Source of the DNA: Burkholderiales bacterium
GTDB taxonomy: Bacteria; Pseudomonadota; Gammaproteobacteria; Burkholderiales; SG8-41
NCBI GenBank assembly: GCA_035626595.1
Contig: DASPNJ010000068.1
Coordinates: forward strand, 2,312 to 66,311
Direction: 5' to 3'
Length of the DNA stretch: 64,000 nucleotides
Shown: positions 5,562-64,000 of the stretch, piece after piece
Layout of the letters: every line of letters begins with the position of its first letter
Numbering within the stretch: position 1 is the first letter of the stretch
The notes under the pieces: model-generated
What the model saw: only the letters and a program-made list of their open reading frames with translations
Database searches by the model: none
Told to the model about the DNA's origin: nothing
Made by a program: the position numbers and the translations under genes

Positions 5562-6095
5562 ATGTCGAGGATTGCAAATTATCCCGTCGAGCTGCCGGAG
5601 AAGGTCGAAGTGACGGTCCAGCATGACGAGATCTCGGTAAAGGGCCCGCTCGGGACGCTTACCCAGAAGTACTCGCCGCGCGTGAAGATCGAGCGCGTGG
5701 ATAACCGCCTCGAGTTCAAGATGAACGACAACTCGCGCCAGGCGAACGCGCTGTCCGGGACGGTGCGCGCGCTGGTCGCGAACATGGTGACGGGCGTCAC
5801 CAAGGGTTTCGAGCGCAAGCTGAATCTCGTCGGCGTGGGCTATCGCGCGCAGGCGCAGGGCGACAAGGTGAATCTCACGCTCGGATTTTCGCACCCGGTC
5901 GTGCATCAGCTGCCGAAAGGCGTGAAGGCCGAGACGCCGACGCAGACCGAGATCCTGATCAAGGGCGCCGACAAACAGGTTGTGGGCCAGGTGGCCGCGG
6001 AGATCCGGCGCTACCGCTCGCCCGAGCCGTACAAGGGCAAGGGCGTGCGCTACTCCGACGAGCAGATCGTGCTCAAGGAAACGAAGAAGAAGTAA
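5562..6095 (+). CDS. rplF: 50S ribosomal protein L6
   Basis: [17 protein letters not shown]... 177 aa. The L6 two-domain pattern is present. Confidence 0.97.
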
Positions 6096-6105
6096 CGGTG
6101 ACGAG

Positions 6106-6462
6106 ATGAGCGACAAGATTGAAGCCCGGCTGAGAAGGGCCAAGGCGACCCGCGCGAAGATCGCGCAACTGAACGCGGTGAGGCTCACGGTTCATCGCTC
6201 GAACGCGCACATCTACGCGCAGGTGATCGATGCCTCCGGTTCGAAAGTGCTCGCGAGCGCTTCGACGGCGGAGAAAGACGTGCGCGGCGCGGTGAAGAAC
6301 GGCGGCAACGTGCAGGCCGCCGCGGAGATCGGCAAGCGGATCGCGGAGAAAGCGAAGCAGCTCGGCATCTCCGAGGTCGCGTTCGACCGTTCGGGCTATC
6401 GATTCCATGGTCGCGTGAAAGCGCTGGCCGAAGCCGCGCGCGAAGCCGGCCTGAAGTTTTGA
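6106..6462 (+). CDS. rplR: 50S ribosomal protein L18
   Basis: Internal ATG at 6106 gives [19 protein letters not shown]...[21 protein letters not shown] (L18). The upstream part of track ORF 5980 overlaps rplF. Confidence 0.95.
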
Positions 6463-54244: not shown

Positions 54245-54549
54245 GGGATCTCGATGTCCATGAGCGGCGCGTACTGCTGCCCGCCATGGCCGTCGGCGTC
54301 GTACAGATCGCCCTGTACCGCCGGGCGCGGAATCGTGGCTTTGACCGCGAGCGCGTTGTCGCAGTAGAAGAACTTGACCCGCTCGGGCGACAAGCCATAG
54401 CGCTGCGCCACTGCCTCGCGCGTGAGCGCGCCGGAGCGCTTCACGCGCTCGTAGCGCGCGGCGTCTTCGAACATCACGTCGAAGGTGAGCTCGAACGGGC
54501 CGGCGTTCTTGCTGCGGATCAGCCGCGCGAGCTCGGCGAGCATCGTCAT
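54241..54549 (-). CDS. DUF4387 protein
   Basis: 102 aa. IRSKNAGPFELTFDVMFED...YERVK is typical of DUF4387. 4-nt overlaps with both neighbours. Confidence 0.75.
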   Translation of the reverse strand: MTMLAELARLIRSKNAGPFELTFDVMFEDAARYERVKRSGALTREAVAQRYGLSPERVKFFYCDNALAVKATIPRPAVQGDLYDADGHGGQQYAPLMDIEIP

Positions 54550-55949
54550 TCGGGAATCTCTTCGAACAAAGCGCCCTCGACCGCGTACCAGCGCGTGCGG
54601 AACATCTCGAGCGGATCGTCCGGCTCGACGACGTGATTCACGTTGAAGCGGTAGACGGCGCCGCGATCGAGATGCGCCGGGTTATAGGGGCAGGCGAGCG
54701 CGGTGATGAGCCCGCTCCATTCCGGAATCGGCAGGTGCAGCCCCTGGTGGCGGACGATGCCGGCGATCGAGCTCGCGATCTCCTGCGTGGGCGCAGTGAT
54801 CTCGATGATGAGGCACAGCTCGTGCGACCGGATCTCCTTGACCGGCTCCAGCGGACCCATCGTGCCGTTCTTGCCGTAGACGCGGATGTGCACGACGTAG
54901 TCGGCGCGTTTGAGCGTCTCGCCGTAGACCTGATTGACGCGCGCATGGATGCGCTCGGTCAGCCGCCCGGTCCAGTCGTCGATCTGCCGGATGATGAACG
55001 GATCGCGCACCGAGCCGATCACGATGCTCTGGTAACCGGCTTTTTCCGCGCCTTCGAGCTTCACCGTGTAGCGCGGCGCGGGAAGGAAGCGGCTGCCGCT
55101 CACTTTCACCGCACGTTCGCCGTGCTGCTCGTATCGGCTTTCCGTCAAGTCGAGGGTGCCCGAAGATTCGATGAGCCGGAAGGGATCGGCGTTTTCGTAC
55201 AGGCTGTGCGAGGCGATGCTCTGCGGCGTGCACATGAGCGTTTCGTCCGGTGCCTCGACGATGAAGTGGTCCTCGCGCACCCACGCGAACATGCAGTCGG
55301 GCGTGCGGCGGTTCACGACAGCGGCCGCGCCGCACTCCAGGATCTTCGCCGCGTGCCACGCGATGCCCTCGGAAAAATCGCGCATCACGGGCATGGCGGC
55401 GAAGATCGCGCAATCGCTCGCGCGGCCGGCGACGACCACGTCGGCACCCAGCTCCAGCGCGCGCATGAACGGCTCGGCGCCCATCATGCCGACGATGCAG
55501 GCGCTGCGGTCGATCGTCGCCTCCTCGAACGGCGGCGCCGGATCCAGCGGCTTGATCCGGCCCTCGCGCAGGCGCTTCTTCAGATAGGTCTTGTCCTGCT
55601 GTGCATGCACGACCGCGAGACGAAATGCGAGGGCCTCCTCGTGCGCGATCTCTTTCACGATGTCGCAGAACCACTCGACGTGCGGATCGCCGCCGGCTGT
55701 GCCGGCGGAGCCGATCAGGAGCGGCACGCCGATACGGCGCGCGCCCTTGAGCATCAGGCGCAGGTCGCGTTTCACCGCCGCGCGCGGAAACGCCGCTTCG
55801 CCGGTGCCGAGATGGCTGGGGCCGGGATCGGTCGAGCCCGCATCGCAGCCGATGAAGTGCGGCCGCAGTGCAAGCGCTTTCTCAAAGGAGGATTCGAGGA
55901 AGCCCGATCCGCAAACGCCTGTGGGAGAAAGGATGCGGATCTCGTTCAT
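54546..55949 (-). CDS. AtuA-family (DUF1446) protein
   Basis: IRILSPTGVCGSGF...FIGCDAGSTDPGPSHLGTG is typical of DUF1446/AtuA. Paired with DUF4387 as usual. Confidence 0.75.
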   Translation of the reverse strand: MNEIRILSPTGVCGSGFLESSFEKALALRPHFIGCDAGSTDPGPSHLGTGEAAFPRAAVKRDLRLMLKGARRIGVPLLIGSAGTAGGDPHVEWFCDIVKEIAHEEALAFRLAVVHAQQDKTYLKKRLREGRIKPLDPAPPFEEATIDRSACIVGMMGAEPFMRALELGADVVVAGRASDCAIFAAMPVMRDFSEGIAWHAAKILECGAAAVVNRRTPDCMFAWVREDHFIVEAPDETLMCTPQSIASHSLYENADPFRLIESSGTLDLTESRYEQHGERAVKVSGSRFLPAPRYTVKLEGAEKAGYQSIVIGSVRDPFIIRQIDDWTGRLTERIHARVNQVYGETLKRADYVVHIRVYGKNGTMGPLEPVKEIRSHELCLIIEITAPTQEIASSIAGIVRHQGLHLPIPEWSGLITALACPYNPAHLDRGAVYRFNVNHVVEPDDPLEMFRTRWYAVEGALFEEIPE

Positions 55950-57025: not shown

Positions 57026-57120
57026 TGGCGGAAGAGAGTGGGAGTCGAACCCACGCAGGACCGCCTGCGGCCCCTACCGGGTTTGAAGTCCGGCCGCCCC
57101 ACCGGGAGCGATTCCCTTCC
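57026..57120 (-). tRNA. selC: tRNA-Sec (UCA anticodon)
   Basis: Minus-strand 95 nt: GGAAGGGAATCGCTCCCGGTGGGGCGGCCGGACTTCAAACCCGGTAGGGGCCGCAGGCGGTCCTGCGTGGGTTCGACTCCCACTCTCTTCCGCCA. Features: 8-bp acceptor stem, CUUCAAA anticodon loop, long extra arm, encoded CCA. Nearly colinear with E. coli selC. Confidence 0.93.
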
Positions 57121-58167: not shown

Positions 58168-60168
58168 TCATCGTCTGTAGGTTGGTGCCGGCCGGCGCGC
58201 TGGCGCGGGTTTCGGCGCGGGCTTGGCCGTCGCCGGCGGACGCGCGGGCGCTGTCGCGGCGCCGAGTATGGGTACGAAATCCTTGCGCATCTTGCGGGCG
58301 TCGCCTACACGCTGCGTGATGCCGAGGCCGTCGAGAAATTCGAGGATCTCGATGGCGAGGCTGCGTCCGACGCCGGTGGCATCGCGATACTGCGCGGCGG
58401 TGAACTGGCCGTTCGGCTGCGCCTGCGCGGTGGCTTGCGCGATCGCCGCGAGCGTCGCCAGTGTGGCGCGCGGATAGAAGCGGTCACCGGTCACGCGCAT
58501 GACCTCGCCGGTCTTCGCCTTGCGGTACAGAAAATCCTTGACGATCGGTTCCTTCAACTTCAGCTGCGCGGCGAGGTCGCGCAGCGGCGGCGCATTGAAG
58601 CCCGCGCCTTCGAGCGCGGGACGCACCGTCTGCCACAAGCGGGCGTCGGCTTCGTTGGCGGTGGCGTTGTGGCCGGGCAGCCGCGCGGTGGAGCCGCTCG
58701 CCTCGATCCTGCGTTCGTCGGCGAGGCGCCGCAGCACCGAACCGAAGGCGTCCGCGTCGAGGTCCGGCGCGATTGTCTTGCGCAGCGCCTCGATCTCGTG
58801 TCCGGGCGCCTGCGGATTTGCGCGGTGGAACTCGCCCAACGCACGCACGATCGCTTCGCGCACGGCGTCGATCCGCGCTTGCTTGACCGCCAGCCGTCCG
58901 TCCTTGCCGAGCCGCGCGATGCCGGCATGCTCGTACAGACGCGCGGTACGTTCCGGCGCGAGGTTGTAGACGAGCTCGAACCGCGCGAGGTCCACCGGTT
59001 GACCGCTCTCCAGCATTGCCGCCAGGGCGTCCTCGGCCGCGTCGTGCTCCAGCGCCGCAAGTTGCGCCGCGCGCTCCCGGCTTGCGCGTCGGCTCGCGGG
59101 GGCGAACGGATCGAGCACGAAGCCGCCGCCGAGCGTGCGGATCGCCGACTGATCGCGCACGATGAAGCGGTCGCCGCGCAGCGCGCAGATCGGCTGATCG
59201 AGAACGAGCTGGACGTAGGCGCTCGCGCCGGGCGCGATGTCTTCACCACGGCGCGTGGCGATGCGTGCGGTGACGTCGCTCGTGGCGAGATGCAGGTGCA
59301 CCGGCGTCCAGTGCTCGAGCGCGCTCGCTTCGGCGTCGAGCACTTTCAGGCGCGCATCGATGCGGCTCGTCGGATGGTGGAGCTCCGGCGCGAGCACCCA
59401 ATCGCCACGGCGCACCGCGTCGAGCCCGGCGCCCGTCAGATTGAGCGCGCAGCGCTCGCCGGCCTGCGCGGCCTGTGCCGCCCGCCCGTGGATCTGAATC
59501 CCGCGCACGCGCACCGGCAGCCCTGCCGGCGATATCGTCAGCCGGTCGCCCGGTTTCACCGTGCCGTTGAACACGGTGCCGGTGACGACCGTGCCGCTGC
59601 CCGCGACGCTGAACGCGCGATCGATCGCATAGCGCAGGTGCTGGCCCGGTGCGTGGCGCGCGGAGTGCCGCTGCGCTTCGGTGACGAGGCGCTCGCGCAG
59701 CGCATCGATGCCTTGCCCGGTCAGCGCGGACACCGCGAGCGTGGGAGCGCCAGCGAGCTGCGTTGGCGCGAGCAGCGCGGTGACCGCATCCTCGACTTCG
59801 CGCACCCGGGCGGCATCGACGCGGTCGCACTTGGTGATGACTGCGGCGCCGCGCGCGACGTGCAGGAGATCGAGAATGTGCAGGTGTTCGATCGTCTGCG
59901 GCATGACACCGTCGTCCGCCGCCACGACCAGCAGCGCGAAATCGATGCCGCTCACGCCCGCGAGCATGTTTCGGATAAAGCGCTCGTGACCCGGCACGTC
60001 GACGAAACCGATCAAGCCGCCGCCTTCGAGCGGCAGGTACGCGAATCCCAGATCGATCGAGATCCCGCGCGCTTTTTCCTCCGGCAGGCGGTCGGTGTCC
60101 ACGCCCGTGAGCGTTTTCACGAGCAGCGTCTTGCCGTGGTCGATGTGGCCTGCGGTCGCGACGATCAT
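58168..60168 (-). CDS. selB: selenocysteine-specific elongation factor SelB
   Basis: ATG at 60168 gives [44 protein letters not shown]. GTPase domain plus a long C-terminal winged-helix region. Starts 2 nt after the selA stop. Confidence 0.93.
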
Positions 60169-60170
60169 GG

Positions 60171-61577
60171 TTACAGCTTCAAGTGCAGGAGTTGCGCGAC
60201 GAACCCGGCTTCGTCGTCGAGACAGCGCAGATCCATGAGGAAAGCGCCTTCGGTGACGCGCCCGATCACCGGCATCGGCAGTGCGCGGAACGCGTTCGCG
60301 ATGCGCTGTGCGGCCGAGCCTTTCGTTTTTCCGGAGATCTCGACGGCAATGCCGGCGCTCGGCAGCGAATCCACGGGCAGCGAGCCGCTGCCGATCTGAC
60401 TCTTGCACGCGCTCACCCGAGCCTGCGCGCGACTGCCCAGCGCCGCCTGCACCTGCGGCAGCAGCCGCGCCGCCTGCGCGTCGATATCGTCGAGGTCCCG
60501 CGTGAGAAATCGCAGCGTCGGCAGCTCTTGCGCGAGCTTATCGGGGTTGGCATAGAGCTTGAGCACGCTCTCGAGCGCCGCGAGAACCATCTTGTCCACC
60601 CGCAGCGCGCGTTTCATGGGGTTTTTCCGGATCCGCTCGACGAGATCCTTGCGCCCGACGATGAGGCCGGCCTGCGGACCGCCGAGCAGCTTGTCGCCGC
60701 TGAAGGTGACGATGTCGGCGCCGCTCGCGAGTGCTTCGCGCGGCGTCGGCTCGTGTGGCAGGCCGTACTCTTCCAGATCGACGAGCATGCCGCTGCCGAG
60801 ATCGACCAGCATCGGCAGCCCGTGGTCGTGCGCGAGCTTCGCGAGCTCGGCTTCGGACACCGAAGCGGTGAAGCCCTGGATCGCGTAGTTGCTCGTGTGC
60901 ACCTTCATGAGCGCCGCTACGCCCGGCCCGAGCGCTTCGGCGTAATCCTTGAGGTGCGTGCGGTTGGTCGTGCCAACCTCGCGCAGCTTGCAGCCGGAGC
61001 GCGTCATGATGTCGGGGATGCGGAACGCGCCGCCGATCTCGACGAGCTCGCCGCGCGAGACCAGCACTTCCTTGCGCGCCGCGACCGTGTTGAGCGTGAG
61101 ATACACCGCGGCGGCATTGTTGTTCACGACGGCCGCACTCTCGGCGCCGGTGAGCCGCGTAAGCCAGCGCTCGACATGCGTATCGCGCTCGCCCCGCGCG
61201 GCGCCCTCGAGGTCGAATTCCAAATTGACCGGCCGCGTCATCGCCTGCATCACCGCTTCGGCGGCGGCCTGCGGCATCGGCGCGCGGCCAAGGTTCGTGT
61301 GCAGCACGGTGCCGGTGAGATTGAAAACGGCTCGCAGTGAAGGTTGTGTCTCGTGCGCGAGCCGCGAAGTGCACGCGGCGAGGAGCACTGCATCGTCGAA
61401 ATCGCCGTCGGGCGTAGCGTGCGCGAGCCGCCGGCGCTCTTCCTCGAGCAGCGCGCGCAGCGTATCGGTGACATGTGGACGGCCGTAGCGGCCGATGAGC
61501 GGTTCGACCCGGCTGTCGTTCAGCAGCCTGTCGATGGACGGCAACGCGCGACGCGCGGCGGGTCCGCCGTTCAGCAC
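60171..61577 (-). CDS. selA: L-seryl-tRNA(Sec) selenium transferase SelA
   Basis: Colinear with E. coli SelA: [53 protein letters not shown] (PLP Lys), SQIGSGSLP. Confidence 0.95.
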
Positions 61578-61617
61578 GGCGGCCGTCCCGAAGTAAAGCG
61601 ATAGATCATGAGCCTTT

Positions 61618-62394
61618 CTATTCGAACAGCCGCTCCGGCAGCGGAAGCCCGGCGAGGTCGTGCTGCGACAGGCGCTGCGCAGGCGTCACGCCCCAGCGCT
61701 CCTCGAGGATGTGCGCGAGCTGCCGCGCGTGCTGTGCCGAGTGCCACGTCGAGCGCTCCAGCACCTGGTGCAGCGGCTGGGGGCCGTAGAAGGTCGCCAT
61801 CTTCTGCGCGCCGGATTTGTCAGCGAGCTGCGACCACCACGCTTCGATTCGGCGCACGACCTCATCGCCATACTGCGCGATCTCGCCTCCGGTCAGGTAC
61901 GTGCCGTCTGCCGGCGGCACGTTCGCGGCCTGGATCGCGTATTCCTTCCCGTCGATGGCCGATTCGAGGAACGCCTCACCGATGCGGAATACGTGATGCG
62001 CGAGCAGACGGATCGGGCGGTCGCGGTTCGGGATCACGCGCTCGCTCATCTTGTCGCCGGGGATCTGCGCGATCAGCGCCTGCGAGGTGCGCAGCACGTT
62101 AACCCATTTGCGAACGAGCTCGTCAGGCGGCAGCGGAGTGTGTCCGGTGCCCTGCAGGCCGACGAACTCCGCGACGTCTTCGAGGTTCTGGCCGAAAACG
62201 TAATTCTCGCCGCGCGCGACGACGGGCACGTTGCGTACGCCGAGCTTGAGCAGCCGCTCGCGGCCTCCGGTGTCGTTCAACACGTCCACGTGCTCGTACT
62301 CGATACCTTTACGCGAAAGAAACTCTTTCGCCCGGAGACAACTGCTTCACCCCGGTTGTGTGAATAAAACGAACTTGTCTGCGACCGTGTTCAT
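61618..62394 (-). CDS. selenoprotein: glutaredoxin/NrdH-like domain with U-S-S-C redox motif fused to a DinB-family domain. The in-frame TGA (62347-62349) is read as Sec.
   Basis: Hand translation upstream of track ORF 61618-62289, same frame: ATG(62394) MNTVADKFVLFTQPG-TGA-SSCLRAKEFLSRKGIEYEHVDVLNDTGGRERLLKLGVRNVPVVARGENYVFGQNLEDVAEFVGL... This is a complete Grx fold with TGA at the first Cys position of CxxC. A hairpin lies downstream. selA starts 40 nt after the stop. An alternative ATG lies at 62448. Confidence 0.75.
62313..62349 (-). promoter_or_regulatory. UGA codon plus candidate bacterial SECIS hairpin
   Basis: UGA-15 nt-GCGAAAG-AGUUU-CUUUCGC. Perfect 7-bp stem with GU in the apical loop. 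The loop starts 22 nt after UGA. Confidence 0.45.
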
Positions 62395-62525
62395 GCGCGC
62401 TTTCGGGAGTGACGGCGAGGGGAATCGGGAGGCTACTCCGCGCCTCATTCGAGCGTCAAGGCGAGTATAATGGCGCGCCGCCCGCAGCCCACGCGAGCGT
62501 CACGCCACGTCATCCCGCCGCGAGA

Positions 62526-63137
62526 ATGAAGCTCATAGGCACGCCCACCAGTCCTTACACGCGCAAAGTGCGTGTCGTTCTCGCGGAGAAGCGCATCGAC
62601 TATGAATTCATCGTCGACGTGCCCTACGAAGCGACGACGCGCGTGCCGTCGTACAACCCGCTCGGCAAAGTGCCTGTGCTCGTGCTCGACGATGCGACGA
62701 CGCTCTTCGATTCGCGCGTGATCGTGGAGTATCTCGACAGCGCGAGCCCGGTCACGAAGCTCCTGCCCGACGATACGCGCCCGCGTATACAGACGCGCCG
62801 CTGGGAAGCGCTCGCCGATGGATGTGTCGATGCCGTGGTCGCCATACTCATGGAAAAACGGCGGCCACAGGAGCTCCAGTACGATCAGTGGTACGGCCGT
62901 CAGCGCGAGAAGATCGACCGCGCCCTGCACGCGATGTCGGACGAGCTCGGCAGCCGCAGCTTCTGCTGCGGTGACTTCTTCAATCTGGCGGACGTCGCCG
63001 TCGGATGTTGTCTCGGCTTCCTCGATCTGCGTCTGCCGGAGATCAACTGGCGCTCGCCCTACTCGAACCTGGCGAAGCTCGCCGAGAAGCTCGGCAACCG
63101 GCCCTCGTTCAAGGACACGGTTCCACCGCAGACGTAG
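62526..63137 (+). CDS. yibF: glutathione S-transferase, YibF-like
   Basis: ATG 62526 gives MKLIGTPTSPYTRKVRVVLAEKRIDYEFI...NPLGKVPVLV...FDSRVIVEYL, closely colinear with E. coli YibF. Divergent from the sel operon. Confidence 0.8.
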   Translation: MKLIGTPTSPYTRKVRVVLAEKRIDYEFIVDVPYEATTRVPSYNPLGKVPVLVLDDATTLFDSRVIVEYLDSASPVTKLLPDDTRPRIQTRRWEALADGCVDAVVAILMEKRRPQELQYDQWYGRQREKIDRALHAMSDELGSRSFCCGDFFNLADVAVGCCLGFLDLRLPEINWRSPYSNLAKLAEKLGNRPSFKDTVPPQT

Positions 63138-63200
63138 CAGGGTTCACGCGCGCCGCCATCGATACCGCGGCGCCGTGGCCAGTGCGCAGCTTGCGGCAAG

Positions 63201-64000
63201 CTACGACTCCGGAGCGACTGCTCCTGGCGGACACTCCGCCGGCGCGGCGGAAGCAGACTCTTTCTGTGCGGACTCGATGATGCCTCCGCCCAGGCAGACG
63301 CGGCTTTCGTAAGCGACGACCGACTGACCGGGCGTCACCGCCCACTGCGGCTCCGCAAAGTCGATCGTGCAGCGGTTCGCGTCGCATTCCACGAGCGTGC
63401 ACGGTGCGTCCTTCTGCCGGTAGCGGGTTTTCGCGCTGTAGACCCACGCGCAGTGGGGCGTGCTGCCGCTCACCCAGGAAAGATTCACCGCCGTCAGCCG
63501 GTTCGAATACAGCGCACGGTTCTCGCGTCCCTGCACGACGATCAGGCGATTTCGTTTCAGGTCTTTGTCGACCACGTACCAGGCATCGCGCTCGGCCTCG
63601 CGCATGCCGCCGATGCCGAGCCCCTGCCGCTGGCCGATCGTGTAGAACATGAGGCCCATGTGGCGGCCGACGAGGCGCCCGTCGAGCGTATAGATGTGGC
63701 CGGGATCGGCCGGCAGGTAGCGGTTGAGAAATTCGCGGAATGGACGCTCGCCGATAAAGCAGATGCCGGTGGAATCGCGCTTGTCGTGGTTGGGGAGCCC
63801 CTCGCGCCGCGCGATCTCGCGCACTTCGCGCTTGTAGAGCCCGCCGAGCGGAAAGAGCGTTTTCGAGAGCTGCCGCTGATCGAGGCGGTACAGGAAGTAG
63901 CTCTGATCCTTGCTGCCGTCCTCGGCCTTCAGAAGCTGGAACAGACCATCGCGTTCGCGCACCTGCGCATAATGCCCCGTCGCGATGTAGTCGGCGCCGA
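63201..64000 (-). CDS. mnmA: tRNA 2-thiouridine(34) synthase MnmA (5' part beyond window end)
   Basis: [25 protein letters not shown] and, at the window edge, [14 protein letters not shown]. The ORF is open to position 64000. Confidence 0.9.

Follow-up and report, generated by a model that had tools for sequence, protein, structure and literature searches.

The 64,000-nucleotide stretch of DNA analysed here (the window) comes from a Burkholderiales bacterium (GenBank assembly GCA_035626595.1, contig DASPNJ010000068.1, positions 2,312 to 66,311). Close to its end, the minus strand very probably encodes a selenoprotein with a Grx(Sec)-DinB architecture, in which a glutaredoxin (Grx)-like domain containing selenocysteine (Sec) is fused to a DinB-type domain, and a recoding hairpin is located within the coding region itself. 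This assignment is derived from the sequence and its comparison with related loci. Translated from 62394 to 61618 (-), the gene forms one frame of 258 codons followed by TAG, with the TGA at 62349-62347 as sole internal stop. The frame peptide reads MNTVADKFVLFTQPG-[TGA]-SSCLRAKEFLSRKGIEYEHVDV..., beginning with SSCLRAKEFL after the TGA, and the nearest upstream in-frame stop lies beyond the ATG at 62394. The open reading frame (ORF) caller reported only 61618..62289 (-), a 223-residue product starting at a GTG located 19 codons downstream of the TGA. In a preliminary description of this DNA, it had been argued that this ORF begins at the GTG only through the TGA 19 codons upstream, and that the same frame runs through this single TGA to the ATG; our translation agrees exactly with the former, and the peptide matches the latter. 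The GTG corresponds to an Ile codon (ATC or ATT) in 54 of 81 related sequences and thus cannot be a conserved start. Two antisense ORFs overlap the gene, at 61660-62367 (+) and 61608-62102 (+), with lengths of 235 and 164 residues; they are artefacts typical of DNA with 66% GC.

Homologous loci were collected by scanning one genome per GTDB species for six-frame matches to residues 1-258 across the stop. This resulted in 80 loci, including one (L025) in which the contig begins inside the gene. Codon-level variation was analysed in 81 distinct sequences, and the locus L086 (GenBank metagenome-assembled genome (MAG) GCA_036262035.1, contig DATAJS010000031.1) was checked in addition. The TGA is found at the same codon in all 80 loci, in 81/81 sequences of the codon analysis and in L086, embedded in the conserved peptide F-x-L-F-T-Q-P-G-U-S-S-C-L-R-x-K-E-F-L-S. 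At codons -9 to -1, the amino acids are conserved and each is written with two to six synonymous codons; codons +1 to +47 are similarly conserved at the amino-acid level, with synonymous variation. Amino acids that stay constant upstream of the TGA while their codons vary synonymously are what purifying selection on a translated sequence leaves behind. According to their titles, the related genomes are metagenome-assembled in nearly all of the 80 cases (the exception being L022, a Burkholderiales bin), originating from soil, groundwater and lakes, and there is no cultured isolate among them. They belong mostly to the Burkholderiales or Betaproteobacteria, with a few Binatia, delta and Acidobacteriota members, and the names of some, for example 'Bordetella parapertussis' or 'Streptomycetaceae', are evidently wrong.

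These comparative data refute pseudogene decay, a sequencing error or local codon reassignment as the origin of the TGA, and the probability of such an origin is practically negligible. The one argument for it is the bare presence of an in-frame stop. Against it stand the identical TGA in 82 independent assemblies from several phyla and the purifying selection on both sides of this codon. Moreover, TGA is the ordinary stop of selB and of an AtuA-like gene within the same window, so the codon is not reassigned.

The position of the TGA is occupied by cysteine in a large number of relatives. An exhaustive HMMER search with residues 17-258 returned 816 relatives, the best 150 representatives of which were inspected. 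Fifty-five of these 150 are full length (250-276 residues), with a C-x-x-C motif (mostly PGC[S/T]SC) aligned to U-S-S-C, and an alignment of 40 sequences (A1) likewise puts Cys at the TGA column of full-length homologues. The preliminary description had placed the TGA at the position of the nucleophilic Cys of a CxxC motif, which is in agreement with the PG-C-S/T-S-C motif of the full-length homologues. Its further expectation, that homologues carry TGA-x-x-Cys or Cys-x-x-Cys at the aligned site and are conserved upstream of the TGA, was also borne out. Divergent representatives such as P0126, P0150 and P0163 (about 35-45% identical) begin with 'MR(T/A)KEFL...', and these and similar entries may be further TGA-truncated Sec forms outside the studied clade.

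Just downstream of the TGA, the predicted transcript contains a hairpin resembling a bacterial selenocysteine insertion sequence (bSECIS). Its apical loop, GUU (62323-62321), begins at a distance of 23 nt from the UGA. The published bSECIS consensus (PMC13188914, Figure 2) has an apical loop of 3-9 nt with a G within the first two loop positions, an upper stem of 4-16 bp, a UGA-to-loop distance of 16-37 nt and a minimum free energy (MFE) of -7.5 kcal/mol or lower. With its GUU loop, stem of 7-8 bp, spacing of 23 nt and -8.6 kcal/mol, the hairpin of the window agrees with this consensus. The hairpin codons (+6 to +11, (G/A)CG AAA GAG TTT CTT TCG) show zero synonymous change in the 81 sequences; the other invariant amino acids of the region are written with 2-6 codons each. 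RNAalifold identified exactly the 62330-62314 hairpin as the only consensus structure, and it appears in 76 of the 81 MFE folds, with a median of -12.4 kcal/mol for 48-nt folds. A larger hairpin enclosing the UGA, also seen on folding, was dropped as unconserved in the alignment. Four Cys-form genes (L082-L085) served as a control: in these, the identical K-E-F-L is written AAG GAR TTY CTN, followed by GCN, and the hairpin is missing. The codons being frozen in TGA forms and the hairpin absent in Cys forms, the constraint on the RNA exists only where a TGA needs recoding. A stem-loop fitting the consensus had been looked for at this place on the basis of the preliminary description, and it is present there, its nucleotides frozen only in the TGA forms.

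The hairpin also seems to leave its mark on the protein. In Sec forms, K-E-F-L is always followed by Ser (TCG, codon +11, 62314-62316) and preceded by Ala or Thr as (G/A)CG (codon +6); the Cys forms mostly have Ala (GCN) after K-E-F-L. This difference between Ser and Ala suggests that the hairpin dictates amino acids in helix 1 of the redox domain.

The domain content was determined by a Pfam search with the TGA replaced by Cys. Residues 9-63 match PF00462 (Glutaredoxin) with 47.8 bits, against a gathering threshold of 22.9, and the U16-S-S-C19 motif comes right after strand beta-1. As the protein of the window contains one Sec and a single Cys (C19), U16 and C19 are its sole possible redox pair. 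By sequence, the closest entries in the PDB for this N-terminal domain are the small glutaredoxin 7c10 (E 1.5e-12) and NrdH/BC3987 (about 1e-8 to 1e-9). The C-terminal part matches PF12867 (DinB_2) over residues 102-226 and profile positions 7-128 of 128, with 28.3 bits against a gathering threshold of 24.8; its sequence match in the PDB is marginal (6iz2, E 0.64).

The fold was examined in an AlphaFold2 (AF2) model of P0123, the closest full-length Cys homologue (47-50% identical), calculated from the 40-sequence alignment. In this model (pLDDT 92.6, pTM 0.88), a redoxin domain of beta-alpha-beta-alpha-beta-beta-alpha topology precedes a four-helix bundle. In a Foldseek comparison with the PDB, the redoxin domain of P0123 is most similar to BC3987 (3zit/3zij, TMt 0.85-0.89, with 0.89 for 3zit), and cGrx1 is matched as well. 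Its bundle resembles DR0053 (6iz2, TMt 0.82), 2p1a (0.77), YfiT (1rxq, 0.66), 3gor and 3di5, together with the mycothiol-dependent maleylpyruvate isomerase (2nsf/2nsg) and the DinB domain of OvsA (8u41). Matches to glutathione S-transferase (GST)-like folds were rejected as an architectural analogy only (TM 0.29-0.44, root-mean-square deviation >10 Å). Taken together, the sequence and the predicted fold of the Cys homologue show a two-domain architecture of an NrdH/Grx-like fold and a DinB/YfiT bundle.

Three His residues, H134, H218 and H222, are invariant in alignment A1, and so are H209, E213, R214, W217 and Q221. In the P0123 model, H134 is located on the second long helix of the bundle, and H218 and H222 (H-x3-H) on the fourth. 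The DinB/STL superfamily has a three-His metal site, with one His on helix 2 and an H-x3-H motif on helix 4 (PMC10950700), and the three residues correspond to this site as a putative metal-binding triad. The preliminary description had recognised a DinB bundle with conserved His in the C-terminal ~170 residues, and the above-threshold PF12867 match, the fold matches and the invariant His triad support it. It had also recognised a Grx/NrdH start. This holds with regard to PF00462 and the thioredoxin fold; the domain is nevertheless closest to the small NrdH/BC3987/cGrx-type redoxins and not to the classical glutathione-dependent Grx.

The gene, designated here as grxU-dinB, is followed by the genes of the Sec machinery (Table 1). 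The selA gene starts 40 nt downstream, and only 2 nt separate its stop (TAA) from the ATG of selB (60166-60173, -); the selB start at 60408 in the ORF list is an over-extension into selA. Among the 80 related loci, 52 have selA downstream on the same strand, with a gap of 30-4551 nt, and the larger gaps hold inserted genes, often TctC-like. No terminator-like sites were found on the minus strand between 62394 and 57026. Next comes a gene for a thioredoxin reductase (TrxR)-like flavoprotein, present in all 15 loci with a complete selB and at least 1.1 kb of downstream sequence and seen in about 37 loci in total. Its product contains the motifs CADC, GxGxxG and GGGDSA, with HRG where TrxR has HRR, and its orthologues are named 'thioredoxin reductase (NADPH)' or 'FAD-dependent oxidoreductase'. 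A search with this protein returned only close orthologues (at least 67% identity) and no more distant contexts. The tRNA-Sec gene is found in the same place after the TrxR-like gene in 15 related loci.

The order of the cluster is mnmA, a divergent GST gene (in about half of the loci), grxU-dinB, selA, selB, the TrxR-like gene and selC. Based on synteny and on the gaps of 40 and 2 nt, grxU-dinB is shown as the predicted first cistron of a conserved Sec cluster. The preliminary description had put the gene at the head of an operon with selA and selB; both exceed their NCBIfam cutoffs and the cluster recurs, with the TrxR-like gene and tRNA-Sec as additional members. The upstream gene mnmA (tRNA 2-thiouridine synthase, 63201-63962 (-)) occupies this position in 66 of the 80 loci; its product s2U is the precursor of 2-selenouridine. 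The divergent GST gene (PRK10357-type, 62526-63137 (+)) lies between mnmA and the selenoprotein gene in 36 loci.

Table 1. Predicted features of the grxU-dinB locus (positions in the window)
Feature	Positions	Strand	Details
Grx(Sec)-DinB selenoprotein coding sequence	61618..62394	-	258 residues; ATG 62394, TAG stop 61620-61618; two Pfam domains
UGA as predicted Sec codon U16, first residue of U-S-S-C19	62347..62349	-	motif codons 62349-62338; comparative evidence
Bacterial SECIS-like hairpin CGAAAGA-GUU-UCUUUCG	62314..62330	-	17 nt, 7 bp; 8 bp (62331-62313) in window
Glutaredoxin/NrdH-like thioredoxin-fold domain	62206..62370	-	PF00462 residues 9-63; fold to ~residue 80
DinB_2/YfiT-type four-helix bundle	61717..62091	-	residues 102-226; PF12867
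Invariant His134, His218, His222	61995-61993, 61743-61741, 61731-61729	-	40-sequence alignment A1, window numbering
selA, L-seryl-tRNA(Sec) selenium transferase	60171..61577	-	TIGR00474, 597.9 bits vs cutoff 267.9
selB, Sec-specific elongation factor	58168..60168	-	TIGR00475, 447 bits vs cutoff 242.25
Thioredoxin-reductase-like flavoprotein, 301 aa	57249..58154	-	CADC redox motif; FAD and NAD(P)H glycine motifs
selC, tRNA-Sec, anticodon TCA	57026..57120	-	ARAGORN

Several observations weigh against the interpretation as a selenoprotein served by this cluster. The core hairpin alone has -6.3 to -6.8 kcal/mol in 44 of the 81 sequences, weaker than the -7.5 limit, and no compensatory base changes occur, all seven pairs being invariant, which makes a covariation test impossible. 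The folding energy is unexceptional compared with shuffled sequences (z = -1.42 for 81 nt, z = -0.51 for 50 nt); such z-scores were judged of no use for a short element in 66% GC DNA, and the synonymous-site analysis was used instead. An Rfam scan of 60000-64000 in E-value mode gave no SECIS or other credible RNA family, a result that is uninformative rather than negative. The structural model is that of the Cys homologue and not of the protein of the window. The TrxR-like protein scores below the TIGR01292 equivalog cutoff (226.5 vs 343.45 bits), for which reason it is called TrxR-like and not TrxR, and it is a candidate reductase of the U16/C19 pair by synteny only; the four Cys-form loci examined have no TrxR-like neighbour. 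With an approximate query sequence, selD was not found in the 64-kb window or the related loci. Finally, in 12 Sec-form loci whose sequence continues for 5.5 kb or more downstream, non-Burkholderiales (Binatia, delta, Acidobacteriota) included, there is no adjacent selA within that stretch.

The insignificant stability of the hairpin against shuffles is also one of the arguments for a genuine stop, in which case a 15-residue leader would be followed by a separate DinB-only protein, translated from the GTG at 62289 or another internal start. Existing annotation points the same way. The best 120 of 3940 database matches are products of 206-238 residues starting after the TGA, as called by the ENA, JGI and NCBI gene callers and named 'hypothetical protein', 'DinB superfamily' or 'glutaredoxin'. 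L086 is annotated with a 158-residue DinB_2 fragment only (5896-6372), although its DNA at 5587-6372 holds a frame of 261 codons in which this TGA and this hairpin recur. An AtuA-family gene flanking this locus is 86% identical to window 54546-55949, which makes the L086 MAG a fairly close relative of the organism of the window. A genuine stop is nonetheless highly improbable. The 15 codons before the TGA and the 19 between TGA and GTG are conserved in frame with synonymous variation, and the proposed GTG start is a non-start Ile codon in most sequences. A product starting after the TGA would be devoid of strand beta-1 and the active site of a fold recognised by Pfam, and the Cys-form homologues are contiguous and full length. 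The SECIS-like hairpin and the Sec machinery encoded immediately downstream also count against it.

On the comparative evidence, UGA16 is very probably decoded as selenocysteine by SelB and Sec-tRNA(Sec), signalled by the 7-8 bp GUU-loop hairpin, and the cluster would furnish most of the machinery for making the protein. For the catalysis, the following mechanism can be proposed. The U16 selenolate would be the nucleophile that attacks a substrate, or a thiol adduct bound at the putative metal site of the DinB domain. C19 would resolve the intermediate into a selenenylsulfide, which the co-encoded TrxR-like flavoprotein would re-reduce with NAD(P)H. In this case, the enzyme would work as a selenol-dependent reductase or thiol-transferase that is complete in itself. 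NrdH/BC3987-type redoxins are substrates of thioredoxin reductase, which fits the adjoining TrxR-like gene; the reductant is inferred from this neighbour only. We hold this specific cycle of U16 attack, C19 resolution and re-reduction tentatively, at a little under even confidence.

Alternatively, the selenoprotein and the TrxR-like flavoprotein could jointly take part in selenium handling itself and reduce or carry selenium (as selenite, selenotrisulfide or selenide) for the use of SelD and SelA. Both selenite and selenodiglutathione are reduced by thioredoxin systems. Such a role would account for the place of the gene in a sel operon, where selA, selB, the TrxR-like gene and selC are repeatedly found close to it. 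The role is also in line with a TrxR-like neighbour being found with the Sec forms and not with the four examined Cys-form loci, and with no other selenoprotein gene or selD being apparent in the 64-kb window. However, Cys forms are common (55 of the 150 best representatives), and those at the examined loci lie in contexts free of selenium genes. In the Binatia, delta and Acidobacteriota MAGs, the Sec-form genes are not beside sel genes. If a component of the machinery itself required Sec, the arrangement would be circular, though SelD selenoproteins prove that such cases can exist, and the co-location of a selenoprotein gene with sel genes is expected from co-inheritance alone. A role in selenium handling is decidedly unlikely.

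A second alternative concerns the chemistry. The tethered selenol or thiol could replace the low-molecular-weight thiol cofactor of DinB enzymes in nucleophilic catalysis, without redox turnover, perhaps in the cis-trans isomerisation or conjugation of unsaturated di- or tricarboxylates. In favour of this chemistry, the DinB/STL superfamily consists of metal-dependent mycothiol, bacillithiol and glutathione transferases (PMC10950700). The mycothiol-dependent maleylpyruvate isomerase (2nsf/2nsg) among the fold matches points in the same direction. The homologue P0188 (721 residues) carries about 480 extra N-terminal residues, which we tentatively assign to the MmgE/PrpD family. Additionally, the Cys form of L083 is followed by TctC, MmgE/PrpD and a CoA ligase, aconitase subunits and BKACE are found near L082 and L085, and MmgE/PrpD and TctC genes lie near the Sec cluster in L086. 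On the other hand, TctC and MmgE/PrpD are very abundant in Burkholderiales and their adjacency may be chance, and both the invariant resolving Cys19 and the presence of a TrxR-like partner favour cycling through a disulfide or selenenylsulfide. We consider catalysis of this purely nucleophilic kind unlikely.

As to the neighbourhood itself, MmgE/PrpD-family and TctC genes recur beside Grx-DinB genes (L083, 7001-10082; L086, 13099-18741). This recurrence may indicate a functional link or may merely reflect how common these genes are in Burkholderiales. The neighbours at L070 and L080, two of the distant Sec-form loci with no adjacent selA (RidA, SBP, MFS, aminotransferase and NHL genes), have nothing in common and give no functional hint.

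Going beyond the selenol-dependent cycle proposed above, the cluster could be a module that chiefly or exclusively serves the product of its own first gene, a DinB enzyme in which a tethered selenol, recycled by a dedicated flavoprotein, replaces the free low-molecular-weight thiol required by all characterised DinB transferases and isomerases. This extension is rather doubtful. In view of the MmgE/PrpD and TctC genes that recur nearby, the enzyme might act on unsaturated organic acids.

Compared with known systems, the protein combines features of several families. A selenoprotein glutaredoxin (Grx, PF00462, UxxC) has been experimentally verified according to PMC13188914 (Table 1). The protein of the window shares with it a thioredoxin fold, a Sec that is N-terminal in U-x-x-C, a coding-region SECIS just after the UGA and the existence of Cys orthologues; it likewise exceeds the PF00462 cutoff, with the small Grx 7c10 as its closest solved sequence. 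Unlike the known Sec-Grx, which are stand-alone proteins of about 80-100 residues, it is fused to a 170-residue DinB domain, its gene is part of a sel operon with a TrxR-like gene, and it scores nearer to YruB/NrdH-type models than to Grx3. The NrdH-redoxins and BC3987-type proteins are the best structural match for the N-terminal domain of the modelled Cys homologue. The likeness to NrdH is a resemblance only, as TIGR02194 gives 36.9 bits against a cutoff of 85.75. No ribonucleotide reductase genes are located nearby; moreover, Sec replaces the first Cys in the window protein, which also carries the DinB fusion.

The second half of the protein has the four-helix bundle, the PF12867 match and the three invariant His of the DinB/YfiT proteins (BstA, mycothiol S-transferase, maleylpyruvate isomerase, DR0053 and YfiT). 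The known members, in contrast, use a free low-molecular-weight thiol and have neither a fused redoxin nor a selenocysteine. The NCBI-curated Grx-like selenoproteins of the UXX-star and HUGP-GUXX-star types (NF041212, NF041114, NF041211, NF047338, NF045501) are weakly matched at residues 9-67, with scores far below their cutoffs (42.6 vs 66; 27 vs 325). These families carry Sec three residues from the C-terminus, whereas it is residue 16 of 258 in the window protein.

In NCBIfam release 20, no model reaches its cutoff (the nearest, of the YruB, Uxx-star and NrdH types, stay far below, and Grx3 is below as well), and none covers the DinB half. The inventory of 119 prokaryotic selenoprotein families of May 2026 (PMC13188914, Table 1) has no DinB or Grx-DinB entry, and the word 'DinB' is absent. 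Nor do the deep-Sep, BSepDB and Peng 2016 papers mention DinB in their main text. A full-text literature search for DinB together with selenoprotein or selenocysteine, or for sel genes in Burkholderiales, gave nothing relevant, with literature beyond the searchable corpus possible. Homology-based surveys may have counted such genes as 'Grx'. The preliminary description had supposed that the architecture was undescribed, and the NCBIfam release, the family inventory and the full-text literature all agree with it. What is new is the selenoprotein family and the fusion of Sec and DinB; the recoding mechanism is standard for bacteria, and Sec-Grx and DinB transferases are already known.

New bacterial selenoprotein families are regularly reported, and the function of the Grx(Sec)-DinB protein is inferred. 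As a widespread family and the first selenoprotein with a DinB domain, it would join the catalogue of about 119 prokaryotic families. The all-metagenome origin of the related genomes may explain why genome-based surveys missed it. Thousands of TGA-truncated database entries (3940 matches) are concerned, and a curated model combining U-S-S-C with the 17-nt hairpin would correct them. Frozen across phyla and also fixing amino acids (Ser at +11 against Ala in the Cys forms), the hairpin is a natural case of a SECIS shaping the protein that it serves.

Most of the large DinB superfamily is of unknown function, and a fused Sec redoxin with an apparently dedicated TrxR-like gene provides a testable handle on at least one of its branches. 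For the organisms, the data suggest a partial link between the Grx(Sec)-DinB protein and the use of selenium by Betaproteobacteria of soil and groundwater. If the cluster were indeed a self-contained module, the persistence of the Sec trait in a large group of uncultured Burkholderiales from these habitats would be due to this protein.

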